Translations under genes and position numbers: made by a program
Notes under the pieces: model-generated
Seen by the model: only the letters and a program-made list of their open reading frames with translations
Told to the model about the DNA's origin: nothing
Database searches by the model: none
Assembly (NCBI GenBank): GCA_018303825.1
Contig: JAGVXK010000021.1
Coordinates: 1 to 64,000 of the forward strand
Direction: 5' to 3'
Origin: Candidatus Pacearchaeota archaeon
GTDB lineage: Archaea > Nanobdellota > Nanobdellia > Pacearchaeales > GW2011-AR1
DNA length: 64,000 nt
Shown here: positions 2,446 through 35,677 of the stretch, piece after piece
Layout: each line of letters begins with the position of its first letter
Position numbering within the stretch: the stretch's first letter is position 1

Positions 2446-2481
2446 AAGTTTTTTAGTAAATGATAGTTTTTAATCTTTTAC

Positions 2482-3168: not shown

Positions 3169-3377
3169 AAGTACCTTAGAGGTTATAAAAAACTATCTTT
3201 TGAAAAATTTTCCTGAAATCCACTATACTATAAATAAAATAATTTAGAAATTGCGCATAATAAAATATAAATACAAGAGATGTTTATTAGGATAATGATA
3301 AAAAGGTGTTAGGAAGACATCTTAGAATTCTGGCCTTCCTGTAAAAGCAAAGAACAATTAAAACAGGAGGCAATCAA

Positions 3378-3554
3378 ATGAATAAGAAAGGACAACAATT
3401 TGTAGAGAAAGGATTAGTTTTTCTCGGTCTATGGTTAATCTCAGCAATAGTCTGGGCATTTTTTCTTGATGGAATAAATGTTGCTATTGCAAGTTGTTTA
3501 ACAGCGATAGGAGTAACCAGTGTGATAAACATAACAATTAGTGGTAAGAGATAA
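3378..3554 (+). CDS. 58-aa pilin-like membrane protein with class III signal peptide
   Basis: Below the ORF-track cutoff. SD ggagg upstream; MNKKG|QQFVEKGLVFLGLWLISAIVWAFFLDGINVAIASCLTAIGVTSVINITISGKR has the KKG cleavage site, E at +5 and two hydrophobic stretches. Confidence 0.6.
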   Translation: MNKKGQQFVEKGLVFLGLWLISAIVWAFFLDGINVAIASCLTAIGVTSVINITISGKR

Positions 3555-3562
3555 CATCTAAG

Positions 3563-3970
3563 CCCCCTCCCTCGAGGGAGGGGGTTGGGGGTGGGTGGCA
3601 ATGGGTGAACAAGCCGAACTCCTGCAGGCGAAGTGAATTGAGCGACTATCGTTACAAGAGGAGGTTGGGAGGTGAATTGGAACGAAGGAGCGAAAGAACC
3701 CTTTAGAGCAAACAAAAATCCAAAAGTTTGCATAAGAGCGCTCTTATGCGAAAAACGCAATAACTCCCTTTTGGATTTTTGAGTAAGGGCAAAGCTTTTC
3801 GTAAGAAAAGTTCGTTTATGAACATAAACGAAGGCTTTAGCCCTTGCACTTACGGTTTGCGTATGCTGTAAGCGAGAACCAGCTATAACTTATGAAAAAG
3901 GTAGATTGGTTCGAGCTTTAAGGGCTATCTTCCCGTTGTTTTTGCGGTACGCAAAACATTCTGGGAAGAT
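3563..3970. repeat. Cluster of perfect palindromes and nested hairpins (non-coding)
   Basis: 22-bp palindrome 3563-3584; 20-bp palindrome 3730-3749 nested in a 14-bp IR (3713-3726/3768-3781); ttcgtttatg-aa-cataaacgaa 3811-3832; atcttccc/gggaagat 3927-3934/3963-3970 enclosing tttgcg-gta-cgcaaa. Confidence 0.85.
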
Positions 3971-3978
3971 TGAGCATA

Positions 3979-5349
3979 TTATTCTACCTTTACGAACTCT
4001 GTGCCATCCATCACAACCCTCTCTATCTTATAGTCTGATGTTTCTGAGGGTTTATTAGAATCTTTAGACTCAAATGCATCAAGAGGCTTCTGTGGTTCCG
4101 AGGGTTTGTTTTTCTCTGGATTGAGTTCATAATATCCTCTTCTTGGCTTAATCAAAATATTATTATCAAGGTTCATTTTAAGTCCTCGTTCTACCGTTGC
4201 CTTAGAATACTTGTAAGATTTCATTGCCTCAATAGCCTCAGAGGTATATAGTGTGGTTTTCTGATGCTCCGCCATGAATTTAATAATCCTCTTCGCGCAC
4301 TCTTCATCTGCACAGAGAGCATCTTCAGCATCCCCTGCACATTCCATCCTCAAACTATCTTCAGTCCACTCAAAATTAACCCTTTTAGGATCCATTTCCT
4401 GTTTATACCTGCATTTGGCCTGCTTTAGAATAAAGCTGTTTTCAGAGCCTCTATTTCTCTGCAAGATCAAGATTATATCTGCACAATTTGCTAAATCTGA
4501 GCTTCCTCTTAACTCATCCATATCATCAATTGGATTCTTTCCAGCCATGCCTTTCCTTAGATGATGAAGTAATATCCAAGTAACGCCATACTTCTCGGTA
4601 ATTGGCTTTAAATGGTTTGTAAATAAATTAGAGATAAAGCCCGCATCATTCTCATCAAATCCTATAAATCTTCTAAAGCTATCTATTACAATAACCTCTG
4701 GCTTAAAATCTTCTAATGTTCTCTTAAGTTTTTCAACTTCGGAAGGATCATCAAATCTAAATCTTGCATAAGGCAAAAAAGCCACATCTGAATCTGTGTT
4801 TAAATTCAATCCCTTCTTTATCTTATCAACCCTATCTTTTATTAGAGAAACATCATTCTCTGCGTCAATGTAGAGAACTTTTGTCTTTTTAGTTGAAAAC
4901 TTATTTAGAAAAGGCAAACCCTGTGCTATACTATAACTCAAAACGACTGAAGTAGCGCTCTTATAAGTTCCTCTTTTACCCCCGATAACACAAATAGAAT
5001 TTTTAGGAATCAATTCTTCAATAATCCAATCAATAGGCTTAATCTCTAAACTGCTTAAATCCTTATCATAAATTATCTTGAGCTTATCTTCTTTCTTCTC
5101 AATCTTTTTTTCAGCTTTTTCTTTGCTTTCCTTTTCTTCTTTAAAACTCAAATTTCTAAACGTGAAAAACTTCTTTATCTGCTCTATATAGATAGTTTTC
5201 TCTTTTTGATAAAAAGGATTTTTAGAATAATATTCAGATTTATCTTTTACAATCTTTCTTATAGGGCCTTCTGCTCCCGGGTGTTGTTTAATCAATTCAT
5301 CTAATTCTCTTTCGTCGTAGCCAATAACGGGAGTATCTTTTTTATTCAT
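3979..5349 (-). CDS. AAA_25 / RepA-like (SF4-type) replicative ATPase-helicase
   Basis: Walker A GGKRGTYKS, VLYIDAEN, Walker B VIVIDSF, ILLHHLRK and RGSSDL motifs; possible C-terminal wHTH. Confidence 0.8.
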   Translation of the reverse strand: MNKKDTPVIGYDERELDELIKQHPGAEGPIRKIVKDKSEYYSKNPFYQKEKTIYIEQIKKFFTFRNLSFKEEKESKEKAEKKIEKKEDKLKIIYDKDLSSLEIKPIDWIIEELIPKNSICVIGGKRGTYKSATSVVLSYSIAQGLPFLNKFSTKKTKVLYIDAENDVSLIKDRVDKIKKGLNLNTDSDVAFLPYARFRFDDPSEVEKLKRTLEDFKPEVIVIDSFRRFIGFDENDAGFISNLFTNHLKPITEKYGVTWILLHHLRKGMAGKNPIDDMDELRGSSDLANCADIILILQRNRGSENSFILKQAKCRYKQEMDPKRVNFEWTEDSLRMECAGDAEDALCADEECAKRIIKFMAEHQKTTLYTSEAIEAMKSYKYSKATVERGLKMNLDNNILIKPRRGYYELNPEKNKPSEPQKPLDAFESKDSNKPSETSDYKIERVVMDGTEFVKVE

Positions 5350-5582
5350 GTTTTGACTCCCTTAAATCTAATTATTTTTATCTTGCGCTTTCTCTGTAAA
5401 TAGAAAAGTAACTTCCAAACATCCTGTTTTTTTAATTGAAGAGATCTCCCCAAGACCATAAAAATTTCAGGGAAAGTTATGATACCACTAGGTCTGCATT
5501 TACAACTATTTATTCTAGCTAAGACAATTTGATCAAAGTCAAATCGCCCTTCTTTATGAGCTGTCTTTACCTTCTTTTTCAT
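5346..5582 (-). CDS. Small basic hypothetical protein, possibly winged-helix
   Basis: 78-aa ORF with a 4-nt overlap to the helicase start; Lys/Arg-rich. Confidence 0.5.
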   Translation of the reverse strand: MKKKVKTAHKEGRFDFDQIVLARINSCKCRPSGIITFPEIFMVLGRSLQLKKQDVWKLLFYLQRKRKIKIIRFKGVKT

Positions 5583-5682
5583 GTTTATTAGCGTCAGAGG
5601 AAGACTCGTCAGTCTTCCCTTTTTTAATCTCTTCTTTGAGAATGTTAAACCAGTTAGGAGTTGTTGGGACTTTCATTTCCAT
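5554..5682 (-). CDS. 42-aa hypothetical protein
   Basis: MEMKVPTTPNWFNILKEEIKK...; strong SD aggaggtg upstream, but it overlaps both neighbours. Confidence 0.3.
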   Translation of the reverse strand: MEMKVPTTPNWFNILKEEIKKGKTDESSSDANKHEKEGKDSS

Positions 5683-5800
5683 TTTTCAACACCTCCTTAA
5701 GCATTTGTTCAATAAAACGAGATCTTGAAACTAATCCTTTTAGAGAATTAATTTTATTTACAATTTCTCTTTCTATTGATAGTGTTATGATTGTTCTCAT
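5654..5800 (-). CDS. Ribbon-helix-helix (CopG/Arc-like) regulator, 48 aa
   Basis: Hand translation MRTIITLSIEREIVNKINSLKGLVSRSRFIEQMLKEVL shows the alternating beta-strand, helix, then SRS-x-FI helix pattern of RHH proteins. Confidence 0.65.
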   Translation of the reverse strand: MRTIITLSIEREIVNKINSLKGLVSRSRFIEQMLKEVLKNGNESPNNS

Positions 5801-6013
5801 TTTTGTTATCTCTCTTAACCTTATAGTGCTGAAAGATTGAAAAAAATCCGCAACTTTTCAAAATTCAAAATGAAAATAGAAGAATATATAAACTTCAGAT
5901 TATTAAGCTTAATAATAAGGCATTCAATAGATTCTTATTGTCCTTCGGGGCCATTTTATTTCTATCCTGTCAGTAATACAAAGGTTTTTAATTAGTTCAA
6001 GTGCATTAAAATA

Positions 6014-6286
6014 ATGAGCGTTGAAGAATTTATTAAACAAGGAACTGCTGATTTTAAAAGCGATTTTATTGATTTTCTAAGAAAAAGGGCTGTAGCAAAG
6101 GGATGGCCATGCGACAGATTAAGCTCTTATACATTAAGTGATGGCTTCAATGACTTAAATAGGAAATATAATGGCAGAGGTCCATTTTACTTGGGTTTGG
6201 CTTTGCATGAAATGCTTAGTTCAAATGAACTTAGATTTAAAGAAGATGATAATGCTGGAGATGTTTACATTCTTGCCCACAGATAA
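6014..6286 (+). CDS. Hypothetical protein
   Basis: 90-aa ORF preceded by an AT-rich promoter-like sequence. Confidence 0.5.
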   Translation: MSVEEFIKQGTADFKSDFIDFLRKRAVAKGWPCDRLSSYTLSDGFNDLNRKYNGRGPFYLGLALHEMLSSNELRFKEDDNAGDVYILAHR

Positions 6287-6390
6287 CAACAATATTTATA
6301 TATAAGTTATGTCTTAGAAAGGGATATTTGTATCGTATTTTTTCTCGAAAAATACTAGTTTTTACTGTGTTCCACGATGGACTTTCACTT

Positions 6391-6406
6391 AGAAAAGTTT
6401 AAAAAG
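6391..6406 (+). promoter_or_regulatory. BRE/TATA-like promoter of the RNA polymerase operon
   Basis: agaaaag-tttaaaaag, ~70 nt upstream of the rpoH start. Confidence 0.45.
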
Positions 6407-6473
6407 CCACTTTTATAATACTTGTTATCACCCTATATTAAATATTTTCCCTGAGAGAGCTATTCAACTTAGA

Positions 6474-6680
6474 ATGCACGAATTACAGCCAAAACATACA
6501 AAACTGAAACCTGAAGAGGTAAAGAAACTATTGGAAAAATATAATCTTTCTGTTTCGCAATTGGCAAAAATAAAGGCAGATGACCCTGCTGTTCCTGCTG
6601 GCTGTGTCAGGGGGGAAATATTAAAAGTTGAAAGAAAAGACGGCGACAAAGTAAACATATATTTCAGGGTGGTAGTTTAA
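6474..6680 (+). CDS. rpoH: RNA polymerase subunit Rpo5 (H)
   Basis: HELQPKHTKL...LAKIKADDPAV...GEILKVER...YFRVVV; first gene of the rpoHBA operon. Confidence 0.95.
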   Translation: MHELQPKHTKLKPEEVKKLLEKYNLSVSQLAKIKADDPAVPAGCVRGEILKVERKDGDKVNIYFRVVV

Positions 6681-9600
6681 TGGCTGAGAAACACCTTCTT
6701 GTTAAAAAATATCTTGAGCAGCATTCTCTTGTAGAATCAAACATTCTTTCTTTCAATGATTTCTTGAAAAATAAGATGCAGCAAATTGTCAATGAAATAA
6801 ATGACAATTTGGAAAATGAAGAAGTCGAAATAAAACTCGGCAAAGTCAGAATAGAAAAACCAAATATTATTGAAGCAGATGGAAGTTCAACTCAAATTAC
6901 TCCCGCAATCGCAAGATTGAGAAATCTTACCTATTCTGCTCCTGTTTTCATTGAATTGAGCATCAAGTATGGAGATCAAACCGACAGCGCTGAAGTTGAA
7001 GTTGGAAGAATCCCTATAATTGTCAAGAGCCTGGCATGCAACACATTCGGAATGGATAAGGAAGAGTTAAGAAAAAACTACATGGACCCATTGGATCCTG
7101 GAGGATATTTCATAATTAATGGAAATGAAAAAGTCATTGTAATGTCTGAAGACCTTGCTGCAAACCAGCCATTTATAGAGGAGGGAAGGCTTGGATTAAC
7201 ATTAAAATTATTTTCACAGAGGGGCTCTTACAGAATTCCCACAACTATCTCAGAGACACACGATGGAATACTAGAGCTCAGCTTCTCAAGATTGAAGAAT
7301 ATTCCCGCTCTTGTTGTGTTAAAATGCCTTGGAATAACAAAGGAAGCAGAGATTGCTAAATACATAGGACATGAAAATGACTGCTTAATAGTTAACCTCT
7401 ATGAGTACGCAGAATTGCAGGATGCTGAAGAGGCGATGATGTTTCTTGCGGAAAAAGCGGGAATACAAGGAACAAGAAAAGAAATTATCGACAGAGTCAA
7501 GCAGAGAATAGATTCCTTCTTTCTGCCGCATATAGGTTTGGAAAAAACATCCAGGCAGGAAAAAGCACTGACATTGTGCAGGTTGCTAAGATTATATCTT
7601 CTGGCAAAAGAAAACAAAAATATCAGAACAGACAAAGACCATTATGCAAACAAGAGAGTAAAACTTTCGGGAGATTTGATGTCCGACTTGTTCAGAGTAA
7701 ACATAAACATTCTTGTAAGAGATGTCCAATATTCATTGCAGAAGATTGCAAAGAGAAAGAAATTTTATTCATTAAAGACTATCGCTAAATCTACTTTATT
7801 CACGCACAGAATTGAATCAGCAATTGCAACAGGAAGCTGGATTGGAGAAAGGTCTGGAGTTACGCAGAATATGGACAAGACGAACTATCTTGCAATGCTT
7901 TCACAGCTGATGAGAGTTACTTCTATGCTTCCGGGAGAACAGGAGAACTTCCTGGCCAGAACATTGCATCCGACACATTATGGAAGATTCTGCACTACGG
8001 AAAGCCCGGAAGGAGGAGAGCTTGGATTAAGAAAGAACTTATCTATATTAGCAAAAATTTCAACTCATCTTGAATTTGATGAGCCTGCCGTAATGAAAAA
8101 ATTCAAGGAGCTTGGATTGAATGCAGAGAATGGGAGCGACGTGTTTTTCAATGGAAGAGCAATTGGATTTGTCAGCAATCCTGGAGAATTTGCAGACAAA
8201 GCAAGATGGGCAAGAAGAAACTCTGAATTACCGAAGGAATTAAGTGTTAGATTTGATGAAGATACTGGAATAATTCTCATGTCAACTGAAGTTGGAAGAG
8301 TTCTCAGGCCTTTAATAGTTGTAGAAAATAGTGCCAGCAGATTGAGAGATGAGCATTTGGAACTTTTAGAAGAGGGAAAAATAACATGGAGTGATTTAAT
8401 TAGCCAGGGAATAGTTGAATATATTGATGCTGCCGAAGAAGATAATGCATATGTTTCTTTATTACAAGATAAATTAACAAGCGAACATACTCATTTGGAA
8501 GTAGACTGGGTGGATTTATTCGGACTTATTACAAGTTTAGTCCCATTTGCAAACCACGATCCAGGATCAAGATTGATAAGAGGAAGCAAGACATTAAAGC
8601 AGAGCTTGGGAATTTATGCTGCAAACTATCTTGTAAGATTAGATACTGATGTTTCTGTGCTGCATTATCCACAAAAGCCAATTGTTAGAAGTTTTGTGTA
8701 TGACACTCTTGATGTATATCCTGCTGGGCAAAATATTGTTGTAGCAATTATGCCTTTCGAAGGATATAATTTGGAAGATGCTGTTGTGTTGAATAAAGCA
8801 AGCATTGACAGAGGAATGGGCAGATCAACTTATTTTAGGCCATATTCCACAACAGAATTGCAATATGCTGGAGGATTGTCAGATGAAATACTTATTCCAG
8901 ATAAGGATGTTTCTGGTTATAGGACCGAAATGTCATATAAATATTTGGAAGATGATGGAATCGCATTCCCCGAAGCTTCTATGAATGAAGGGGAAGTATT
9001 GATTGGAAAAGTAACTCCCCCTAAATTCTTGTCTGAGGCAAAAGACATAAGCATCCAAGCAAAAAAAGAAGCCAGCGTTGCAGTCAGACAGGAAGAAAAA
9101 GGAACAGTTGATGCTGTATTTGTCACAGTAGATCAGGAAGGAAATAGAATTGCACAAGTCAGGACAAGAGATTTGAGACTTCCAGAAATAGGAGACAAAT
9201 TCTCTACGCCTCATGGGCAAAAAGGAGTAGTCGGATTAATTGCTGATGCCGAGGATATTCCGTTCACTGGAAGGGGGGTAAAGCCGGATCTGATGTTCAA
9301 CCCGCAAGGCATCCCGAGCAGAATGACAATAGGATATCTTATTGAATTATTAGCCGGAAAAGTAGCTTCTACAAATGGAAAAATAATTGACGGAACTCCA
9401 TTCGCAGGACAAACTGCCGAGGAATTGGAGGAGCAATTGAGGGAGATGGGATTCAGCTATGACGGAAAAGAATCTATGTATAATGGAATTACTGGAAAAA
9501 AAATGGATGTTAAAATTTATATTGGGAATATGTATTATTTGAAATTGAAGCACATGGTCGGAAACAAGCTTCACGCAAGAGCTTCTGGAAAAGTTGCATT

Positions 9601-23370: not shown

Positions 23371-24090
23371 ATGAACGAGAATCCTGATGTAAAACAGGCA
23401 AATAAAACTCTATACATTGCTTTGGCAGTAATAGTCATATTAATCATTGGTTTGTTCACAAATGGCTTTGGACTATTTGGCAAAAGTTCTAACAGTGTAA
23501 CAGTTATTCCTAATCCTCAATTAGAAATAGGAAATTCTCCCGTTCTTGGAAACCCTGATGCAAAAGTAACAATTTATGAATTCTCAGATTTTTCTTGCCC
23601 ATTTTGTGCAGCAGCAGATGGAGAGAATCAACAGTATATGAACTCATTAAAATCGCAGGTTAAAGGATGGGAGCCACCAGTTCCGAATATAATAGAAGAA
23701 TATGCAAAAACAGGAAAAGCAAAGATTGTCTTTAAATACCTTAAAACACACGGCACAGGACAAGCAGCTCACGTTGTTGCCAGTGGATTAAAAAAACAAA
23801 GTGATACATTATTCTGGCAATTCCATGAACTTGCATTCGCAAACCAGGCTGATACGGGAGATATAATAAAAATGAAAGCTCTTGCACAGCAGTTGGGGGC
23901 AAACATAACACAATTGGATGAATATATTGCATCTGGAGCTTTCAATTCTGAATTCGAAAATGATAAAAATATGGCAATCGCAAATGGAGTCCAGGGAACT
24001 CCTTCGTTTATAATAGGAAATATCTTAGTTGATAAACCTATAGCTTATTCAGAATTCAAGAAGATAATTGATGACCAATTAACAAAATAA
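23371..24090 (+). CDS. Membrane-anchored DsbA-like thioredoxin-fold protein
   Basis: N-terminal TM, EFSDFSCPFC, GVQGTPSFIIG. Confidence 0.88.
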   Translation: MNENPDVKQANKTLYIALAVIVILIIGLFTNGFGLFGKSSNSVTVIPNPQLEIGNSPVLGNPDAKVTIYEFSDFSCPFCAAADGENQQYMNSLKSQVKGWEPPVPNIIEEYAKTGKAKIVFKYLKTHGTGQAAHVVASGLKKQSDTLFWQFHELAFANQADTGDIIKMKALAQQLGANITQLDEYIASGAFNSEFENDKNMAIANGVQGTPSFIIGNILVDKPIAYSEFKKIIDDQLTK

Positions 24091-25320: not shown

Positions 25321-25452
25321 AAAATAGTTGGCACGTTAAGAAAGCCCCTCGTGTCTTGAATATTTGTTCGTGAATCTCTCTTCGAGTGGAATTGACGGCT
25401 ATTTTAAGTTTGGATTTATGATTTGCGGTGGTGGGAAGGTGCGCTTTGTGCA

Positions 25453-25842
25453 TCAAATAGCTACTAATATACTCTCTTTTGCTCTGCTAGTCTCATCTGC
25501 AAATGGAACACCTCTCTTGTCATTATACCATCCATATGTTTCTACTTTAGCTCTTTGTTCTGCAAGTTTCTTTGCAATATCATGTGTTCTTTGCTCCACA
25601 TTTTCACATTCATCGACTATTCCAATAACGCCATGCACATGTTCAATTCTAACTTGCGCTCTATTTTCAAGTAACAAAATAACATATTTGCCATCAATTG
25701 GTTTTTCTGGAGTAGCAACTACTATCGTATTCCATACGTCATCTCTTAAAGGGTTAAAAAATTTAAAAGCAGATATATATTTATAGCCATCATTCCGTTC
25801 TGGTTTCCTTTCCTGCAAAACAATCCTTGGTCCGCTACCCAT
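25453..25842 (-). CDS. Hypothetical protein
   Basis: 129-aa ORF with normal composition. Confidence 0.55.
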   Translation of the reverse strand: MGSGPRIVLQERKPERNDGYKYISAFKFFNPLRDDVWNTIVVATPEKPIDGKYVILLLENRAQVRIEHVHGVIGIVDECENVEQRTHDIAKKLAEQRAKVETYGWYNDKRGVPFADETSRAKESILVAI

Positions 25843-25929
25843 CTTTAAACAATATTCATCGCCCTTTTAATTATTTCTATATTGTAAAATATGTTAGCGC
25901 ACCTTCCCATTTCTTATTCATCAATTATT

Positions 25930-26177
25930 TCGCGAAGCGACTATTTAGGGGCGGGTGGTCGGGGGAATGCAAATCATAAATCCGTTTAATATTTCCGTCA
26001 ATTACGTTTAAGCGAGATTAAACTGTCTGCTTTCTGATTTGGGAAAGGGCTTAAGCGTAACGAGAAGAGAGATTGAGAATTATTTTCATTCTGAAAATAA
26101 CTTCCTATTTAATTTATAATATTAAGAAGCAAATTTCAAGTTCATTTAATCGTTCAGGCTAAAAGAACTTTCAACCA
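25930..26177 (+). repeat. Structured repeat element, copy 1, left half
   Basis: tcgc-gaa-gcga hairpin; caattacgtttaagc...gcttaagcgta arm; 28-nt taatcgttcaggctaaaagaactttcaa identical to 30509-30536. Confidence 0.8.
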
Positions 26178-26236
26178 AAAGAAGACAAATCCGAAAAATA
26201 TATATACCATGATTTATCACTATATTCAATTAACTC

Positions 26237-26260
26237 CATGAGATCTGTAAGGATCTCATG
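26237..26260 (+). promoter_or_regulatory. Inverted repeat/hairpin in the NYN leader
   Basis: catgagatc-tgtaag-gatctcatg, ending 8 nt before the ATG. Confidence 0.5.
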
Positions 26261-26268
26261 TTTTTTAT

Positions 26269-26817
26269 ATGAATTCCAAAAAAGAGAAGGTTGCGATTTA
26301 CATCGATGGTAGTAATTTATATTTCTCAATAAAAGATACATTCAATTGTAAAATTGACTTAGAAAAATTCTGTAAAAAATTAGTGAATGATGATGATTTA
26401 GCGAAGATTAATTATTATATTGCTCCTGTTGAGCAATTAGAAAATCCTAAAGCATACGCTCAACAGCAATCATTCTTTGAAAAATTAAGGAAAATTGATA
26501 AACTAAATCTAATTTTTGGCAGGCTAGAAAAGAGAAAGAAAGATGGAGAAATATACCATGTAGAAAAAGCAACAGATGTAAATCTTGCCCTTGATTTGGC
26601 TTTAGATGCACAAAAAGGGGAATATGATAAGGCTCTTCTTATCTCAAATGATGGTGACTTTTCTGGAGCGGTAACTGCCGCAGTCAGTTTCAAAAGAAAA
26701 GTCATTTATATTGCCATAGGCACCAACAAATCTATATCTTATCATTTGAAGAAAGTGGCATCTGCAACCTTTCGAATTAATAAGGAATTCATTGATGAAT
26801 GTAAATTGGATGAGTAG
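26269..26817 (+). CDS. NYN-domain (LabA/DUF88, PIN-like) ribonuclease
   Basis: VAIYIDGSNLY, EKATDVNLALD, LISNDGDFSGAV; all acidic catalytic residues are present. Confidence 0.9.
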   Translation: MNSKKEKVAIYIDGSNLYFSIKDTFNCKIDLEKFCKKLVNDDDLAKINYYIAPVEQLENPKAYAQQQSFFEKLRKIDKLNLIFGRLEKRKKDGEIYHVEKATDVNLALDLALDAQKGEYDKALLISNDGDFSGAVTAAVSFKRKVIYIAIGTNKSISYHLKKVASATFRINKEFIDECKLDE

Positions 26818-26837
26818 AGTTTTCGGCTATTAGTATA

Positions 26838-27120
26838 TGGTGAAAGTTGGGTTAAATCTCGTTTCGAACTAAGAGAACAATTATGGAATAATTGAGAGAT
26901 TTACCTTTTAGCAGAGATTAGGCGAGTCTGAAAGACCTCGAGCTACGAACTAAGAGTCTCGAGTTAGCTAAACCTCACAAGAATGGGCTCTTTGCGTAAT
27001 TGCTGAGAATCTTATGTTCTTAGGGCATTTCATTTGTATCTGTCGGGGGCGCGTTTTTGCTTCTCGCAGAAAATCTCTGATTTTCTGAGCCATCAAGAAC
27101 TTTGTTCTTGAGGTTTTCTG
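26838..27120 (+). repeat. Structured repeat element, copy 1, right half
   Basis: tggtgaaagtt and cttttagc pair with the left half; gagattaggcgagtc is identical to 30635-30649; ctcgag hairpin; gtaattgctg; terminal hairpins. Confidence 0.8.
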
Positions 27121-27160
27121 AAAAAGAAGATTTTTTATATGTTGTTTATTATTAATATCT

Positions 27161-27478
27161 ATGACTTATGCAGTTTATACAACTGAGAGTTTTGATAAAG
27201 AGGTTGAGAAATTGTCTGGAGGAGACCGAGAGATAATTCAGAAAATGTTTTTTAAGATTAAAGACAATCCTTACGCCAGTAACCAATTAAGATACAAGAA
27301 TCTTAGAGAGAAGCGAATTAGAGAAAAAAGAGTTTATTTTCTAGTTTATGATGATTTGCGAGCAGTTCTTATTGTTGCTATAAGCGGTAAGAAAGACCAA
27401 CAAGCAACAATCAATCATATAATCAATTACTTTGATGATTATAAAGAATACTTGGAAAAATTGCTAGGAAAAGATTAA
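27161..27478 (+). CDS. RelE/ParE-family toxin
   Basis: YAVYTTESFDKEVEKL...IKDNPY...LREKRIREKRVYFLVY. Confidence 0.75.
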   Translation: MTYAVYTTESFDKEVEKLSGGDREIIQKMFFKIKDNPYASNQLRYKNLREKRIREKRVYFLVYDDLRAVLIVAISGKKDQQATINHIINYFDDYKEYLEKLLGKD

Positions 27479-27630
27479 GCAACCTGTCTTACTCTGCCAG
27501 CTTTAACATCTTCTAAACTTGCCTTGAACTGCCTTAATAAATCAAAGTCTATCTTTTCTAGCTCTCTGAGCATAGCTACTTGAGCCTTCATCTTCTCGTA
27601 TTCATCTTTTGGTACCTTTACCATTTCCAT
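27475..27630 (-). CDS. Small antitoxin-like protein (51 aa), convergent to the toxin
   Basis: Hand translation MEMVKVPKDEYEKMKAQVAMLRELEKIDFDLLRQFKASLEDVKAGRVRQVA; the SLEDxKAGR tail is typical of RelB-like antitoxins. Confidence 0.6.
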   Translation of the reverse strand: MEMVKVPKDEYEKMKAQVAMLRELEKIDFDLLRQFKASLEDVKAGRVRQVA

Positions 27631-27687
27631 AAATATTTCTAAGAATCAAAGTTTTTAAGCTTTCTGGAAGTCACTTTTGCCCCCTTG

Positions 27688-27825
27688 TTATTGGTTAATT
27701 ATCTCTATTTTGAGCTCTACTATCGTTCCCGGTTTTAGTCTCTCCTCTAACAATTTAGGCATGATTATTATAGCTTGTTTGCCGTGCTTGGCGATTTTCT
27801 TGATTATTGTGAATTGAGTTGTCAT
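27688..27825 (-). CDS. AbrB/SpoVT-like (DUF2080-like) small protein, 45 aa
   Basis: MTTQFTIIKKIAKHGKQAIIIMPKLLEERLKPGTIVELKIEIINQ, a swapped-hairpin pattern. Confidence 0.6.
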   Translation of the reverse strand: MTTQFTIIKKIAKHGKQAIIIMPKLLEERLKPGTIVELKIEIINQ

Positions 27826-28185
27826 CTTACTAATTTATAGATCTCATAAATAGATACTCCTAAAATTGCATATCTTATTGCAATATTCTTTGCAAAATCC
27901 CAGAAAGGATTACCTAAGGGCGAGCCTAAAAATAAAGTATTAAACTTTATTCCAATAATCTATATTTTCCCACGAGATATCGTAGACAATTGTTTAAAAA
28001 TTTACTAACTTATTCTGCGGTGAGCCCTAAACTATCTTGATCTGGCAATGCATCAGCATAGCAGTCATCTAACAATCTTTCATCAATTCTCTTCAAAGCC
28101 CTTCTTTCTCCAATAATTGGAATTGAATCTTTAACAAGTTCGACTAACGAAATCTTTTTGTTATTTGCCTTCTCTTTCATTTTTT

Positions 28186-28896
28186 CTAACCTCGTATTGA
28201 ATCTTCTACAATTCTATTCACTTCTGAAAGTATGCGTTCCCTCGTTCTCTGACCAAAAATCCTATGGATTAATGAACTATCGTCATAACTTTGTAAAACA
28301 AACTCAACATTTGGAGGAGATGTAAATTTCTTAAATCTTCTAAGGGGATAAATAGTAGTAACTTTAACCACACAACCATTTTGTTCTCCACCATTTCTTC
28401 TTTCAAACAAATCTGTTTCTGCATTCTTTCCATATTCGTCTACTACTCGATGGTCGTCTAATACTTGGAGGTATTGTAAATATGGAATTTGACCTTTAGG
28501 ACAAACGTTTTTTGGTCTAAAACTAAAAGGTTCTTTGTTAATTTTATCTGCTACAAAGGTCAAGATGTCTTCGGGTGCCTTGAATAAATGTCTACCAAAA
28601 TCCCTAAAATCTTGCCCTAAAATACCTATTTGAACGCCTTCCCTAGCAGAAAAACTATAATCTTTCTTTGTATCAAATTCTGTCCAAATATGCCCGCCTA
28701 GACTCTCTAAGTGCCCAGTACCATCCAGATGGTTTACAAGAAAAGCGGGCCAAGTTCCCTTATTGTAATATCCTACCTGACATCCTGTAATTCTTACATT
28801 GCCCATTCCATGCAAAAGGTACATTAAATGCTCTGGGCTAATACTATCAAATATGGCACTGTTTTGTACTCTCTTATCATACTTTTGTTCAATCAT
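28186..28896 (-). CDS. Hypothetical protein
   Basis: 236-aa ORF coupled to the upstream ORF. Confidence 0.65.
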   Translation of the reverse strand: MIEQKYDKRVQNSAIFDSISPEHLMYLLHGMGNVRITGCQVGYYNKGTWPAFLVNHLDGTGHLESLGGHIWTEFDTKKDYSFSAREGVQIGILGQDFRDFGRHLFKAPEDILTFVADKINKEPFSFRPKNVCPKGQIPYLQYLQVLDDHRVVDEYGKNAETDLFERRNGGEQNGCVVKVTTIYPLRRFKKFTSPPNVEFVLQSYDDSSLIHRIFGQRTRERILSEVNRIVEDSIRG

Positions 28897-29474
28897 TTTC
28901 TTTCACCTCCGAATTTTTTCTGAAGAAAATCCAATGCTAGTTGCCTTTCTCTTTCTGATTCAAAAATAACAAGGGGCCTTGGCCAAGGTTTGTTACATTT
29001 TTTAATAAAAAATTCAAGCAGGGATTGATGAGAAGAAGCTAATAGATGATCAAACCCGCTAGGGGTTAAATCTGAGTAACCTGGTGTCATCGGGCGACCT
29101 ATTTTGTCTGCGATAGAATTAACCTCATAGGGTCTTGGTGTGAATGATAACGCATAAACCCTCAAACTATCTCCAAACCTACCTGTATTGACGTGCTGAA
29201 TTAGGCATAATTGATCTCCCAAATAAAGATGCATTTGCATATCCATTTTATCTCTTTCATCCGCATTACAATAAATACGCCCGCCAGGAACAACGGGTGA
29301 TGCTCCGCATAGAGTTATTTCGCCAAACTGAGCAACCCTCTCTAAGTAAATTGGACCCCCATCATTAAATCTCGGTGCACATAATGATAAGTTAACACTT
29401 CTCTCTCTACAAAAAATTGCGTTTGCCATTTCTTGATGGGCGTCTTTTCTTTCTATGTTTAATCTTATTCTCAT
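28893..29474 (-). CDS. Hypothetical protein
   Basis: 193-aa ORF divergent from the TrmB-like gene. Confidence 0.65.
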   Translation of the reverse strand: MRIRLNIERKDAHQEMANAIFCRERSVNLSLCAPRFNDGGPIYLERVAQFGEITLCGASPVVPGGRIYCNADERDKMDMQMHLYLGDQLCLIQHVNTGRFGDSLRVYALSFTPRPYEVNSIADKIGRPMTPGYSDLTPSGFDHLLASSHQSLLEFFIKKCNKPWPRPLVIFESERERQLALDFLQKKFGGERK

Positions 29475-29602
29475 TTTCTATTTCTCCCAAGTTTATTTAC
29501 TATCATAAGATAATGGCATAATAAAGTGTATTTAAATTATTGTTGTAAGGAAGCTATTAACAATTTAGAAAGAATTAAATATAACAATTCACTTGATTTT
29601 AT

Positions 29603-30316
29603 ATGGAAATAACTACACTCGAGAGTCTTGGAATGAACAAAACAGAGGCCAAAGTATATCTGGCTTTACTTGAATTGGGAGAAGTACAAGCAGGACAGAT
29701 AAGTAAAAAATCAGGAGTTAATAGAACAAGCACGTATGATTCATTAGAAAGACTAATATCGAAGGGTCTCGTTAAATATGTTATTCAATCAAATAAAAAG
29801 GTATTCGGGGCAGATAAACCCAATAAAATAGTTGAGCAATTAAAAGAACAGGAGAGAATAGCTAAGCAAATACTGCCAGAACTTAATAATTTGTTTAAAG
29901 AATCAAAAAAAGATGAGGAATCTGAGATCTATAAAGGCAGAAAAGGGATAAGGTCTATCTTGTTTGAAATAGTAAAATATAAAGAATATATTGCTTTTGG
30001 CTCAAAAGGCAAGTTTTTAGAGATAATGAAGCACGATTTTGAGATTTTTCAAAAAAGGAAGAAAAAATTAAAGATAAAAGCCAGAGTAATATTAAGAGAA
30101 TCTGATAGGACTTCTGAATCTGTTAAGGTTGCTTATAGTGATTTTAAATTTGTTCCTGATGAATATGGATCTCCGACTACTACATTTGTTTATGGAAATA
30201 ATATTGCCATAATTGTCTGGCTGTCTGAGCCAATCGCTACAGTAATAAAGAGTAAAGAGGTCGCTGAAAGCTATTCGCATTATTTTGAACTACTTTGGAA
30301 ACTCGCAAAGCCCTAG
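29603..30316 (+). CDS. TrmB-family HTH transcriptional regulator
   Basis: LGMNKTEAKVYLALLELG...RTSTYDSLERLISKGLV; effector domain IYKGRKGIRS...TTTFVYGNNIAII. Confidence 0.88.
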   Translation: MEITTLESLGMNKTEAKVYLALLELGEVQAGQISKKSGVNRTSTYDSLERLISKGLVKYVIQSNKKVFGADKPNKIVEQLKEQERIAKQILPELNNLFKESKKDEESEIYKGRKGIRSILFEIVKYKEYIAFGSKGKFLEIMKHDFEIFQKRKKKLKIKARVILRESDRTSESVKVAYSDFKFVPDEYGSPTTTFVYGNNIAIIVWLSEPIATVIKSKEVAESYSHYFELLWKLAKP

Positions 30317-30326
30317 ATGATACCTT

Positions 30327-30779
30327 CTTCGGCGTGAGCCGAAGCTCTCTGTGCGAAGCACCCAAGCCCCCGACCAATTTCTGTTTGACTGAAATGCCTA
30401 CAATCAGCAATTTCGTTTAAGCTTGATTAAACCTTTGGATTTTTTGTTAGTGGCTTAAGCGGAGCAAAGAGCCAATTACTATTTTAAAGTTGAGGTTTAC
30501 TTTTCGTCTAATCGTTCAGGCTAAAAGAACTTTCAAGGCAATTGTTAAAAGTCAAAATAATTGAAAGTTACAGAAAATTATGGTTTCCATAAAGGAAATA
30601 CTTTAGGATAAAGTAAATAATTTTTCTTTTAGTGGAGATTAGGCGAGTCCAAAGGACCTCTTGGTGCGAATTAAGAGCCAAGAGTTAGTAAACCACAACG
30701 AAATATTTGCGAATAAGTGTAATTGCTGGCTATTTTGGTTTTGGGGCTGGCGAGGCGTTTTTCTAAGGGGCACTTTTTC
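30327..30779 (+). repeat. Structured repeat element, copy 2 (complete, no cargo)
   Basis: Nested stems: cagcaatt/aattgctg, ttcgtttaagc/gcttaagcgga, ggtttact/agtaaacc, tcgtctaatc/gattaggcga, ctaaaaga/tcttttag, aactttcaa/ttgaaagtt, aaaattat/ataatttt, acttta-gga-taaagt, ctcttgg/ccaagag. Confidence 0.85.
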
Positions 30780-30788
30780 CTAGTCTAA

Positions 30789-31295
30789 CTAGTTAATTAA
30801 AAACCTATAATAAGATGTAAGAAAATCCAAATTATCTTTAGGATTTATATTCATATTTCCCTCTCCTGTAAAAATAACCTTGTCCCTGAGAGGATATAAT
30901 GGTGACGACCTAAACTCTACATATCCAACTCCCGCCACCCTAAACCATGGCTCAAAGTCATCATGACCACCCGTGGGCAAAATTATCCCATTTCTAATCT
31001 CACTCAAAATATGTACAATTTCTGATCTATCCCTCATTCTTGTCAATTTAGCAAAATTGAATTTTGTTATTGCATGTGCAACAAGCTTCCTATAAAACTC
31101 TGTGCCATACTCGTGATCTGAATTTGAATCGAAGTTCCTTCGACAAAAATGAAATTCCAGAGGATTTCCTTCAAAATTGGATGACTTAATCAAATTAAGA
31201 CTATCTTCCAAAAACACGTCTAACGCATTCCGAATACACAACGGGTACTTACCAACCCTTCTGAATATAAACGCGTCATCATATAACTTCTCCAT
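30789..31295 (-). CDS. Hypothetical protein
   Basis: 168-aa ORF divergent from the second TrmB-like gene. Confidence 0.6.
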   Translation of the reverse strand: MEKLYDDAFIFRRVGKYPLCIRNALDVFLEDSLNLIKSSNFEGNPLEFHFCRRNFDSNSDHEYGTEFYRKLVAHAITKFNFAKLTRMRDRSEIVHILSEIRNGIILPTGGHDDFEPWFRVAGVGYVEFRSSPLYPLRDKVIFTGEGNMNINPKDNLDFLTSYYRFLIN

Positions 31296-31329
31296 GAACT
31301 CTCTGTCTTGCCTAGTCTTTTAAATCTTA

Positions 31330-31350
31330 GTTGTTATTATTAATAACAAC
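31330..31350. promoter_or_regulatory. Perfect 21-bp palindrome between divergent TATA boxes (candidate operator)
   Basis: gttgttatta-t-taataacaac, flanked by tttaaat on both sides. Confidence 0.55.
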
Positions 31351-31380
31351 ATTTAAATAATCACTACAATAAAACTAATA

Positions 31381-32088
31381 ATGGAAGAACTCATAGAAAA
31401 TTTAAAAATGGCCGGTCTAACTGGAAATGAATCAAAAGTTTACGTAGGTCTAATTAAGATTGGAGAAACTTCAGCCAACGAATTAGCAAAAAATCTGAGT
31501 TTAGACAGAACATTAACATATACTATTCTAAACCATTTAATAGAAAAGGGAATGGTTGGCTATGTTATCAAAGCAAATAAAAAGTTCTTCTCGGCATCTG
31601 AACCACAAAACCTATTAAATAAAATAAAAAAAGATGAAACAGCGATAAAAAGAGTGATAGAAACTTTAAAAACAATGAAAACAACAAACGAGCCCTCCCC
31701 GAAAGTGAATGTTTATGATGGGAAAGAGGGACTCAGAACATTCTTAAGGCTTCTGACAAAAGATAAGAAGATTTCTGCATTTGGAGCGACAGGCAGATTA
31801 TATGACTCTCTCTTCGAAACAGAAGCCATCGCAAAAGAATTAAAAAAAACATTATCTGCTAGAATTATTGCTAGTAATAAATATCGCACCCATCCAATTA
31901 GGAAAATAAAGAGAATTGAAGTAAGATATTTAGATGTGGACAACGAGGCAACAACAACCATTTTCGGAGATTATATTGCCCTACATCTTTTAACAGATAA
32001 ACCATTCATAATAACAATCAAGAACAAAGAAATTGCGCATGGTTATCTAAACTATTTCAATCTTCTCTGGAAAATCGCCAAGAAATAA
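31381..32088 (+). CDS. TrmB-family HTH transcriptional regulator (paralogue)
   Basis: AGLTGNESKVYVGLIKIG...RTLTYTILNHLIEKGMV, VYDGKEGLRT, TTTIFGDYIAL. Confidence 0.88.
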   Translation: MEELIENLKMAGLTGNESKVYVGLIKIGETSANELAKNLSLDRTLTYTILNHLIEKGMVGYVIKANKKFFSASEPQNLLNKIKKDETAIKRVIETLKTMKTTNEPSPKVNVYDGKEGLRTFLRLLTKDKKISAFGATGRLYDSLFETEAIAKELKKTLSARIIASNKYRTHPIRKIKRIEVRYLDVDNEATTTIFGDYIALHLLTDKPFIITIKNKEIAHGYLNYFNLLWKIAKK

Positions 32089-32136
32089 TCTGAAAAAGTG
32101 CCCCGTTCTGCTGTTTGATAATTATTGTTCGTATTT

Positions 32137-32515
32137 TCGCCAACAGGCGACTATCTGTGCGTAGCACCACCGAGCCAGCCCCTATCGAACTTCCAGCAAT
32201 TTTGTTTAAACTAGATTAAACGCTCTGCGTCTGATTTCTGAAAATGGTTTAAACGAAACGAATGAGCAAATCCCTAAAGAGGTTTACTTATCGTTTAATC
32301 GTTCGTAATAAGAGTGGTTTTAGCCATTAATACTTAAATCGTATGAGCTAAAACTAAGACTAAATTCCGTCTTTCTACTAAAGAAAGTATTTCAGGATGA
32401 AATAAGGAATTTATCTCTTATGTGAGATTAGCCGACCACTTTAGTAGCGCGAGCTGATTACGAAAATCCTCGCGACTTTTGCTTTGTTCTCAGCCGATTT
32501 CGAAGCGTAATTGCC
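32137..32515 (+). repeat. Structured repeat element, copy 3
   Basis: gtgc-gta-gcac; cagcaatt...gtaattgcc; tttgtttaaac/gtttaaacgaa; tcgtttaatc/gattagccga; tggttttagc/gctaaaacta; taaattcc/ggaattta; tttca-gga-tgaaa; cgcgag/ctcgcg. Confidence 0.8.
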
Positions 32516-32548
32516 AAGATTTATAAAGTAGTAGATTTTATTTAGATT

Positions 32549-32836
32549 ATGGGTTGGAAAAACTGGAGTTATTGGTTGAGAGGAGGTTTTTTGCTAGCAA
32601 CGATTTACTTTATTTATACTTTACTTATAAATCAATTATATGGGACAGTTATAAAAGCAGGATTATATCGCATATTATATGAGGTCGGATATCCCTTCAA
32701 TTTTGTACGGTTTTTGGTTATGGGCTTTAATGAATCATTCATAGCCATAATTTTCAGTTGGATAATTGCATATATTGTCTTTTTCCTTCTTGGAGCAATA
32801 ATTGGTTGGATCGTTGGTAAAATAAAATCTAAGTAA
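32549..32836 (+). CDS. Small membrane protein
   Basis: 95 aa with 2-3 hydrophobic helices; lies between repeat copies 3 and 4. Confidence 0.7.
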   Translation: MGWKNWSYWLRGGFLLATIYFIYTLLINQLYGTVIKAGLYRILYEVGYPFNFVRFLVMGFNESFIAIIFSWIIAYIVFFLLGAIIGWIVGKIKSK

Positions 32837-32853
32837 TTCTTTTTTGAATAATT

Positions 32854-33075
32854 GGCAATTTCGTTTAAGCAAGCTATTGTGCGACATCTCTGATTCGCAC
32901 CCAGCGGTTAAGCGGAGCGAGAAATTAACGGGCTGAGAATTGCAAGCCGAAAGGGGCAAGAGTTTACAGGCAATATTCTATTTGTTACTATGGAAACTCT
33001 GAAGGGGAAGGGGCTTTCTTTTTCTTGAGGGGATTTGCAACCCGAGCGATAGCGAAGGGCAAAGCAAAAGTTTGG
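32854..33075 (+). repeat. Structured repeat element, copy 4 (partial: first arm plus right end)
   Basis: ggcaatttcgtttaagc...ggttaagcgga...aattgc; ggggct right-end motif; ccc-gagcgatagcgaa-ggg. Confidence 0.7.
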
Positions 33076-33118
33076 TTAATCATACTTAAACGAACATTAA
33101 GAATGAAAAAGAAAGGAT

Positions 33119-35677
33119 TTAACCTAATATGCTCAAATTCACTTGGACTTCTGGTTCTTTTGGAACTTTAACAATATCCGCCACTTTGTCTCCTTCTTTC
33201 AACTTAACCACATGGACTCCCTGCGTGGCTCTTCCCATGACTCTCAAGTCCCTCATGCTCGTTCTAAGGACCATCCCTTTTGTTGTCGTTATTATCACAG
33301 AATCACGGTCGTTGACACACAAAGAAGAGATGACATTTCCTGTTCTTTCAGAAACATCAAGACTAATTACTCCTTTTGCGCCCCTCGATGTCTTCCTATA
33401 TTCTTCTAAATCTGATCTCTTCCCGAATCCTTTTTCTGCTACGGTAAGTATTGTTGTTTTCCCATTCATCGGAAGACTTTCAAGAGCGACAACTTCATCT
33501 GTCTTTCCTAATTCTGCGCCTTTTACCCCATAAGATACCCTTCCCATAGGCCTTACCTCGTCGCTGTTGAATCTAACCGCCTGCCCTTTCTTTGTGACAA
33601 GCATTACTTCCTGCTTATCTATGACATGACTTACATTGATTAAAATATCAGAATTATCTGCCGGGAGATTTATTACCCTAACGCCCGTATTTCTTGGTTT
33701 GCTCAAATCTTTCAGTGGAAGCTTCTTTACCATTCCAAGTTTCGTGGCAAACATCAAATATCCCACATCGAAATTCTTTACAGCTTTTACATTTGCTATG
33801 GCTTCATCTCTTAAACTTAAAAGATTGACAATTGCTTTCCCCTTTCCTTGTCTTTCTGCTGATGGAATATCATTTGCTTTCAGCCAATAAACCCTCCCCC
33901 TTGTTGTGAAGAACAATAAGAAATCATGTGTTGAGCAGGTAAGCATCTTGTTTACAAAATCTTCCTCTTTAAGTTCTGCCCCGCTTGTTCCAGCTCCGCC
34001 CCTCTTCTGCTCTTTATATGCCTTAACATCAACTCTCTTCACATATCCTGAGTTTGTAATCATAATGACAACATCTTTCTTCTCAATAAGGTCTTTTTCT
34101 GTTATTTCCTCAACCCTTCTTAATATTCTTGTTCTTCTCTCATCACCATATTTTGTCTTAAATTCCTGAACCTCTCTCTTTATAACCTTTAGAATTTCTT
34201 TTTCGTCTCCAAGAATTTTCTTCAAGTCAGAAATTCCCTCTTTAAGCTTCTTTTCCTCATCCCTGAGCTTTCCTTCTTCTAATCTTGTCAATTGCTGCAA
34301 TCTTATCTCCAAAACTGCCCTTGCCTGCTTATCAGTCAAAGAGAATTTCTTCATTAAGCCATCGTGTGCATCTGTCGCATTAGCTGATTTTTTGATAAAT
34401 TCAACAACTTTATCAATATTCTTCTGCGCAATTAAAAGACCTAAGACAATTTCAAGCCTTTCTTCAGCTTTCTTCAATTCAAACTTGCTTCTATTCCTGA
34501 CTATTAATCTTCTGTATTTGATATATTCTTCAATTATCTGCTTCAAATTAAGAACAACCGGCTTATTTCCAACAAGAGCAAGAAGATTTGCATCAAAACT
34601 CGTTTCCAGGTTAGTTGAAGTGTAAAGCTTGTTCAATGTAAATTTAGAATCAACTTCTTTTTTCAATTCAACAACAATTCTTACCTTTCCTTTGGAAGAT
34701 TCGTCTCTTAAGTCATAAACATCTGGGAGCTTTTTCTCAGTTGCAAGCCTTGCAATCGATGTAACAAGATCAGACTTGTTAACCATGTAAGGTATTTCAT
34801 TAATGATTATGATTGGCCTCCCTTTGCGCTCTTCAACTGTTGTTTTTCCTCTTATTACAATTTTTCCCTTTCCAGACTTATACATATCTTTTATTCCGTC
34901 TCCAAATATCTGTCCCCCTGTTGGAAAATCAGGGCCCTTTACTACTTCAGCAAGTTCATCTATAGTTATTTCCGGCTTGTTTATGCATTCAATTATTGCA
35001 TCGCATACTTCTGTTAGATTATGGGGGGGAATATTTGTGGCCATTCCTACAGCTATTCCCGTAGCCCCATTAATTAGTAAATTTGGCAATTTCGCAGGAA
35101 GTGTTTCCGGCTCTTTTGTTGAATTATCGAAGTTAGGCCTCATCTTCACAGTTTCTTTATCAATGTCTTCAATTAATTCCTGTGAAATCTTTGAAAGTTT
35201 TACTTCTGTGTATCTTTGTGCTGCCGGACTATCTCCATCGAGTGAACCAAAATTTCCTTGCCCGTGCACAAGTGGGTATCTTAAAGAAAAATCCTGTGCC
35301 ATTCTCACGAGAGAATCATATACTGCAATATCACCATGTGGATGATACTTTCCTAAAACTTCTCCTACTACTGCCGCTGATTTTCTTGTTGGCTTGCTCG
35401 CATCAAGCCCAATAGAATGCATCGCATATAAAATTCTTCTGTGCACAGGTTTTAACCCATCCTCAACACTTGGAAGTGCTCTCTGAACAATAACGGACAT
35501 TGCATAATCTATATATGCCTGCTCCATTTCCTCGACTATTTCCACGTTTGCTACGCCCTTCTCAACTTCTCCCTTTGCTCTTCTTTCCTGCTCTTTCTTT
35601 TCTGCTTCTATATCTATCTTTTTCTCTGTTTCATTCCCATTGCAATTTCCATTTTTGTTTTCTTGCTTCTCCGCCAT
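33119..35677 (-). CDS. gyrA: DNA gyrase subunit A
   Basis: [25 protein letters not shown] (catalytic Tyr), GyrA-box EQKRGGAG, beta-pinwheel repeats. Confidence 0.97.

Follow-up and report, generated by a model that had tools for sequence, protein, structure and literature searches.

The window analysed in the current work is a stretch of 64,000 nucleotides (nt) on contig C22 of an archaeal genome of 806 kb and 35% GC (Candidatus Pacearchaeota archaeon, assembly GCA_018303825.1, contig JAGVXK010000021.1, positions 1 to 64,000 of the forward strand), in which eIF2-gamma, S6e, EF2 and archaeal PEP carboxylase genes are encoded. Genomes, contigs and extracted loci are indicated by the letters G, C and L, respectively, G000 being the source genome. 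Positions 25340-33092 of the window are occupied by a 7.8-kb array of large multi-helix elements, which are the subject of this report and comprise three full copies (A, B and C, mutually alignable), one 5' half (D, alignable across the 5' part) and one 3' remnant. An earlier note on this DNA had described four elements, and copies A to D do exist, although the fourth, which had been called partial, is a precise 5' half, and the remnant at 25340-25449 had been overlooked. Five further copies, named F, E1, E2, E3 and E4, were retrieved from contig C18 of the same genome by nhmmer and blastn.

Each unit reads (from 5' to 3' on the + strand) as one or two small GC hairpins, the right clamps, a closing stem, arm 1, a variable stretch and helix 1, followed by the main domain, the last hairpin, the 3' strand of the closing stem, the left clamps and a T-run. 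Arm 1 begins with a dyad, S1, of the form GYTTAA-N6-TTAARC. Helix 1, the 5' strand of which bears the motif TTAATC (S2) and the 3' strand GATTAR, encloses the main domain, consisting of helices 2 and 3 and then a three-way junction. The clamps (a and b on the left, a' and b' on the right) are segments by which the sequence following one copy is complementary to the sequence preceding the next, arranged in two nested tiers (9-16 bp) and differing between junctions. Beyond the helices described in the earlier note, each core is thus accompanied by upstream hairpins and by these long-range clamps.

The array opens with the 3' remnant (25340-25449, +), which is 97% identical to the 3' tail of copy E1 and contains the 3' strand of the last hairpin, the closing 3' strand (25388-96) and the left clamps a (25412-26, complementary to a' at 25969-83) and b (25433-44, complementary to b' at 25897-908). 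Between b and b' lies cargo 1, a gene for a 129-aa protein without a Pfam match (25453-25842, -), which has a 51% identical paralogue on contig C4 (L005 4773-5159), adjoining what is by its appearance a putative tRNA gene with an insertion (L005 ~4560-4710, minus strand). The right clamps and upstream module of copy A (25897-25983, +) further include a hairpin (25930-40) and an 18-nt G-rich box (25948-65). The core of copy A (25999-27002, +) is composed of the closing stem, arm 1 with S1 (26005-23), the candidate crossover motif S2 (26145-55), the main domain and the last hairpin (26937-63), and is split because an open reading frame (ORF) for an NYN-domain protein (26269-26817, +; PF01936, E 8e-19) occupies the apical loop of helix 3 (stem 26166-76 / 26839-48). 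Copy A is followed by left clamps (27023-27050, +), namely a (27023-32, complementary to a' at 30390-98) and b (27042-50, complementary to b' at 30366-74), and a T-run.

Cargo 2 (27161-30316, both strands) comprises a ParE/RelE-like gene (27161-27478, +), two genes without assigned function (28186-29474, -) and a gene for a TrmB-family regulator (29603-30316, +). It leads into the upstream module of copy B (30327-30398, +), with hairpins at 30327-44 and 30351-61 and the right clamps mentioned above, and into its core (30407-30726, +), with S1 at 30414-32, S2 at 30506-17 and the 3' partner of helix 1 at 30635-47. The left clamps after B (30743-30779, +), at 30743-51 and 30767-79, are complementary to a' (32174-82) and b' (32092-104) of the next copy. 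They bracket cargo 3 (30789-32088, both strands), which consists of a 168-aa gene without assigned function (-) and a second TrmB-family regulator gene (31381-32088, +). Copy C has an upstream module (32092-32182, +) with hairpins at 32137-50 and 32157-67, and a core (32196-32514, +) with S2 at 32293-304. Cargo 4 (32532-32831, +) is a 95-aa membrane ORF (32549-32836) associated with a 12-bp inverted repeat (32532-43 / 32820-31) that serves as its clamp pair. The array is closed by copy D (32855-33092, +), the half-element of which (32855-33081) ends exactly at TTAATC (33076-81) within a terminal dyad site (33074-92) located 26 nt from the gyrA stop codon.

The accessory genes that the earlier note had placed in or between copies are thus found in both positions, the NYN gene in the loop of helix 3 and the other cargo between copies. 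Its NYN and TrmB labels hold, and its toxin-antitoxin gene, located at 27161-27478, is a ParE/RelE-family homologue, but this became apparent only through comparison with a paralogue on C18. The loop of helix 3, which is empty and 12 nt long in E1, contains the NYN ORF in A and, in F, a DUF4258 (PBECR RNase-like)/DUF2283 toxin-antitoxin-like pair, which is also present in the same loop in independent metagenome contigs (loop cargo: window 26269-26817; L001 9820-10232; L085 7345-7870; L092 2860-3413). These loop genes may be addiction modules embedded in the site.

Several sequence features recur around the cores. The 18-nt G-rich box recurs without any change upstream of elements in three other genera, and unchanged or nearly so upstream of the elements of L001 (copy E2), L007, L010, L016 and L017, amid variable surroundings; its reverse complement is found at L044 8423-8440. 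A role in protein binding is conceivable, as is the formation of a G-quadruplex on the folding strand. Copies of a shorter box, GGGTGGG, follow the cores and are found again ~280 nt upstream of a recombinase gene on contig C5 (see below). GC-rich clamps followed by runs of five to eight T residues face the cargo from both sides (27050-27062, 30756-30766, 30774-30779, 32092-32097 and equivalents), and in an archaeon these T-runs might stop transcription in both directions and thereby insulate the individual cassettes. A GUGCG-like start upstream of B, C and E1 was considered as that of a group II intron; it belongs to a small hairpin, no domain V was found by eye or in Rfam, and this candidate was rejected.

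The structure of the element is conserved through compensatory change. All helices that the earlier note had listed from the repeated elements were recovered from the sequence and by RNAalifold, i.e., arm 1, the closing stem, taatc/gatta, both versions of helix 2, the three-way junction with its GGA triloop hairpin, and the last hairpin. The core measures 320 nt (450 nt with flanks) and folds into at least six helices and a three-way junction. For the five full copies, RNAalifold predicted 78 pairs, of which 27 exhibit compensatory double changes. The comparison was extended to 25 family members: 94.5% of the alignment cells pair, as compared to 36-51% when the partners are slid, double-sided changes occur in 40 of 48 pairs, and none of 500 shuffles reached the observed pairing values; since this alignment was fitted to the covariance model the pairing figures lean towards structure, yet the margin is still large. 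G-T pairs outnumber A-C pairs by 51 to 14, an excess which implies that the + strand is the one that folds, as had been proposed.

A covariance model built solely from the 152-nt main domain detected matches in 13 of 90 further genomes within the same taxonomic family and in none of 60 genomes from 23 other families; together with the five copies on C18, this answers the earlier call for a search of the remaining genome and of relatives. A scan of metagenomes retrieved 13 contigs carrying elements. Rfam gave no match at gathering thresholds across the 64 kb and only noise at E <= 10 in 25500-33500, and no tRNA gene was found in the window or in 14 related loci. The Rfam families without a match include group I and group II introns, RNase P, GOLLD, ROOL and OLE.

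Such covariation invites the explanation that the element is a large structured non-coding RNA transcribed from the + strand, which might have a processing, insulating or stabilising role between genes, or might be intron-like and tolerate ORFs in a loop. The covariation in six helices is strong and the G-U bias is confined to one strand, the minimum free energy z-scores are -5.9 (copy B) and -3.0, the T-run after each element could terminate archaeal transcription, and both loop ORFs (4/4) and upstream genes (6/8) tend to be co-oriented with the element. Against this, conserved unpaired positions are few, as is the case in structure-specific sites, no Rfam family matches even at E <= 10, and no conserved promoter is present upstream. 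The clamps are a further obstacle. Every cargo is bracketed by them, whether sense or antisense, and when all were compared with all, the top score went to the adjacent pairing or to its paralogue in 6 of 8 rows. They span up to 3 kb including antisense genes and lie outside likely transcripts, and the left repeat of cargo 4 sits between a TATA-like box and the ATG, which would place it outside the mRNA; for both reasons the clamps are hard to accommodate in one RNA.

Several observations, in addition, concern the DNA itself. Homologues of gyrA and of a DsbA-like gene (23371-24090) are convergent neighbours approximately 80 nt apart in G018, a homologue of orf24727 follows gyrA in G009, and element modules downstream of gyrA were found in none of 29 relatives. 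The comparison of syntenic loci that the earlier note had advised therefore yields empty sites in two related genera, and identifies the block of 25.3-33.1 kb as an insertion.

The array ends converge on one motif. Copies D and E4 are 5' halves with an end exactly behind TTAATC, beyond which they pass into similar 20-mers, and the same ending was found at four more loci (G045, G075, G074 and G068), i.e., at six loci in five genomes in total. As far as the TTAATC motif, copy D shares 88% identity with a full element of G069. Taken together, these ends form a dyad-symmetric site of the form GYTTAA-N6-TTAARC, and in G000 this dyad occurs only in the two arrays (5 observed versus 0.75 expected). 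A conserved GC-rich hairpin-like motif lies 30-60 nt past the terminal half-site in four genomes (L047, L050, L051, L001 ~2900-2940) and may belong to an array-end module.

Internal joints coincide with the same motif. Copy A is a mosaic, its 5' half being ~89-94% identical to E2 and its 3' half ~95% identical to F, with the switch located within TTTAATCGTTC, at S2. Among metagenome loci, L091 and L096 combine a common 5' half with two alternative main domains, and L093 and L094 represent the converse situation. A test of discordance across S2 is biased by the 25 nt that follow S2, which most copies have in conserved form; it is informative only for two pairs, in which the 5' halves are nearly identical but the main domains differ. 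Variation in the helices across the joint is too low to tell whether the halves match better in an array or in a cassette context. In the C3 contig of G045 (L044 8000-8440), the 150-nt main domain is inverted exactly between TTAATC and GATTAA, arm 1, the tail and the G-box retaining the opposite orientation to it. Recombination between two inverted boxes would yield exactly this inversion.

Tyrosine recombinases in G000 are two in number, both of the XerA type and of ~275 aa, and are encoded only on C4 and C5. Both of them, as well as an array-linked recombinase of G087, have archaeal XerA (NF040815) as best match; against the IntI model (TIGR02249) they score 198-213 bits, below the cut-off of 265, and match in two stretches that skip the extra domain. 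The C4 gene resides among ordinary genes without an array, and represents the housekeeping copy, whereas the C5 gene follows an array with the same clamps, the same hairpin grammar and the GGGTGGG box. This C5 array (L004, i.e., G000:C5:10500-19500, positions 1300-7922) contains five cassettes and ends at the XerA-like gene. Its junctions are short CTAAC-N3-GTTAG sequences, with boxes 3 nt apart, accompanied by Y-shaped hairpins and clamps; its distal end bears only a truncated 3' tail of an element of a sister subtype, recognised by sequence only, and the main-domain model finds no match on C4 or C5 of G000 even with its filters off. The 3-nt spacing of the C5 boxes suggests that, in an attC site, the counterpart of the 150-nt main domain is the variable terminal structure. 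Elements of the sister subtype that do match the model lie upstream of a XerA-like recombinase gene, at a distance of 1.6-11 kb and in the same orientation, in G087, G036, G069 and G002, and the truncated tail on C5 is placed likewise. The array of G036 reads element, cassette, element, cassette, half-site, recombinase, every cargo being clamped.

The structured-RNA explanation accounts neither for the dyad-symmetric half-sites at array ends nor for the inverted main domain or the linkage of the sister subtype to a recombinase, and we regard it as improbable. The elements are probably DNA recombination sites of an integron-like gene-cassette system of this Pacearchaeota-type DPANN family, rather than RNA genes, although this preference falls well short of certainty. 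Between the two options raised in the earlier note, a large non-coding RNA and a structure-dependent mobile element, the latter is thus favoured by empty sites, half-sites, mosaics, inversion, clamps and recombinase linkage, and the former fits poorly with the scarcity of conserved unpaired bases, the extension of clamps across antisense genes and the lack of an Rfam family.

From these observations we infer a single-stranded DNA state of the site, an enzyme, an exact point of cleavage and present-day activity, as follows. The + strand, as single-stranded DNA, would fold into a branched site of 320-450 nt with helix 1 as its functional heart, TTAATC/GATTAR constituting an R-box-like inverted repeat and the main domain acting like the variable terminal structure of attC. 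Next, a XerA-family tyrosine recombinase acting in trans, for which the array-linked paralogue on C5 is the candidate, would carry out strand exchange on the folded + strand, at TTAATC or directly behind it. A cassette would then extend from just after one S2 to the next S2, and would be composed of the 3' part of one site, the left clamps, the cargo, the right clamps and the 5' part of the next site. If such a cassette were circular or single-stranded, pairing of its clamps and closing stem would loop out the cargo and rebuild one complete site. The C22 array, an insertion between gyrA and a conserved gene with no recombinase gene of its own, ends in an attI-like hybrid half-site; this half-site is present at 33074-92, and it is followed by gyrA, not by a recombinase gene. 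Such a mechanism would account for the hybrid cores within arrays, for the junction-specific clamps and for the arrays that end in 5' halves.

A number of findings weigh against the recombination-site reading. Covariation and G-T bias are equally compatible with an RNA, and the co-orientation of all four helix-3-loop ORFs is not in its favour. Gene conversion could likewise produce joints at a conserved 11-mer. No polymorphism of cassettes was seen at strain level, the array being identical in 12 contigs of the same population. No recombinase gene adjoins any of the type-1 arrays examined (two in G000 and about ten loci elsewhere), and none is present on any of the 13 metagenome contigs. In size, the sites exceed any known attC several-fold. 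Cassettes bear their own TATA-like boxes, unlike classical integron cassettes. The C18 array includes, between F and E1, a polyprenyl synthetase gene (L001 7741-8649), which is likely to be a housekeeping gene in an archaeon, and array cargo is consequently not always accessory. Finally, C22 and C18 share identical clamps and flanks around different cargo (the 129-aa gene versus an unrelated 97-aa gene), which is not explained by crossover at TTAATC alone.

This last finding hints at a second route, by which genes enter helix-closed loops of an existing backbone. We tentatively consider, as a possibility that we rate well below the recombination-site reading itself, that the backbone is a scaffold for cassette building, by which an already existing mobile site captures genes in two of its loops, those closed by the clamps and by helix 3.

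The same finding (one backbone with identical clamps and different cargo) also agrees with a self-propagating but non-autonomous element, in the style of a miniature inverted-repeat transposable element (MITE) or an integrative mobile element exploiting Xer (IMEX), which would integrate in tandem at the dyad site via the host XerA and in whose loops genes would be hitch-hikers, as opposed to cassettes of a dedicated platform. Cargo does lie in helix-closed loops at two positions, type-1 arrays are never beside a recombinase, and the S1 dyad and the terminal sites resemble simple Xer-type core sites. Cargo-free tandem elements were not found, however, and the sister subtype is array-linked to a second, non-housekeeping XerA paralogue, the housekeeping C4 copy lacking an array. 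Moreover, a scan of IMG/VR with two conserved motifs produced only chance matches to unrelated high-GC phage contigs, i.e., no true matches on viral contigs. We therefore judge this explanation to be unlikely. That the elements are decaying repeats homogenised by gene conversion and devoid of present function is highly implausible, for although truncation affects distal copies (F as well as the remnant at 25340) and no polymorphism was seen within the population, the structure is kept by compensatory changes across at least 13 genera and the clamps have retained their complementarity at every junction.

If the recombination-site reading is true, DPANN archaea with genomes of 0.8 Mb run an integron-like system of gene capture assembled from other components: its recombinase is of the ordinary Xer type, and its sites exceed every attC several-fold in size and are more intricate. 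Structure-specific DNA recombination would then cover a broader range than is known today, part of the accessory genome of these organisms would be accounted for, and a natural system would be at hand in which to study how cassettes acquire their sites. The scaffold reading, if it holds, would offer a concrete route to de novo cassette formation, which is an open question for integrons, and would imply that an ordinary Xer-type enzyme acts on giant folds of single-stranded DNA. On a practical note, strong covariation of intergenic repeats does not prove an RNA gene.

In comparison with known systems, the elements are similar to group I and group II introns and to GOLLD and ROOL RNAs in size, in their many covarying helices and in the presence of an ORF in a peripheral loop. 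They differ from these in that no Rfam match and no conserved catalytic-core sequences were seen, in that the copies lie between genes, and in that ends, joints and an inversion are apparent at the DNA level.

The CTX phage, an IMEX, has a folded single-stranded attP that is recombined by XerCD at dif. A Xer-family enzyme presumed to act on forked single-stranded DNA and integration in tandem would be shared with it. In contrast, the present system has no phage genes and no sign that dif is the target, two arrays with different terminal sites coexist in one genome, and sites remain fully foldable inside the array. A simple Xer site consists of two inverted arms around a 6-8-bp centre, the arms of bacterial dif being 11 bp long. 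S1 and the terminal sites, which fit GYTTAA-N6-TTAARC, are putative sites of this kind as judged from their sequence; they are confined to arrays, and their arms are shorter than those of bacterial dif.

The attC sites of integrons are ~57-141 nt in length and form a single imperfect hairpin with R'', L'', L' and R' boxes (RYYYAAC / GTTRRRY), and IntI has an additional domain near patch III. The sites described here are 320-450 nt in size and multi-branched, with six or more helices and a three-way junction; their TTAATC/GATTAR box is similar to, but one base pair longer than, RYYYAAC/GTTRRRY, and neither L boxes nor extrahelical bases of the attC type were identified in them. The recombinase is of the XerA type (270-280 aa) without the IntI-specific extra domain. 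Furthermore, ~150-250 nt of site are retained on each side of the cargo, and the cargo is clamped by its own inverted repeats, is also housed inside the site, and apparently has its own promoters. Published archaeal integrons possess an IntI with the extra domain and classical attC sites (Ghaly et al. 2022, PMC9668308); a literature search returned only such integrons, and no published description of a system such as the present one was found. What is new here is the size and branching of the site, the TTAATC/GATTAR box, an internal cargo slot that repeatedly contains toxin-antitoxin-like genes, and an array that lacks a recombinase, has a defined half-site at its end and is matched by empty syntenic sites.

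The likeness to integrons and to clusters of attC sites lacking integrase (CALINs) nevertheless extends to co-oriented arrays of structure-conserved, sequence-variable sites that fold on one strand, to an R-box-like inverted repeat whose 5' box on the folding strand is the apparent place of crossover, and to an array that ends in a hybrid half-site and carries toxin-antitoxin cargo. In the sister subtype a recombinase resides at the attI end, in matching orientation when read on the folding strand; a recombinase-adjacent array with an attI-type end is present in G036 and G087, and also on C5 of G000, where only the truncated tail of this subtype remains. A CALIN comprises at least two sites in series without a nearby integrase, and the C22 array, with three full sites, a half-site and a remnant in 7.8 kb and no adjoining recombinase, fits this description, although the sites themselves are not classical attC.

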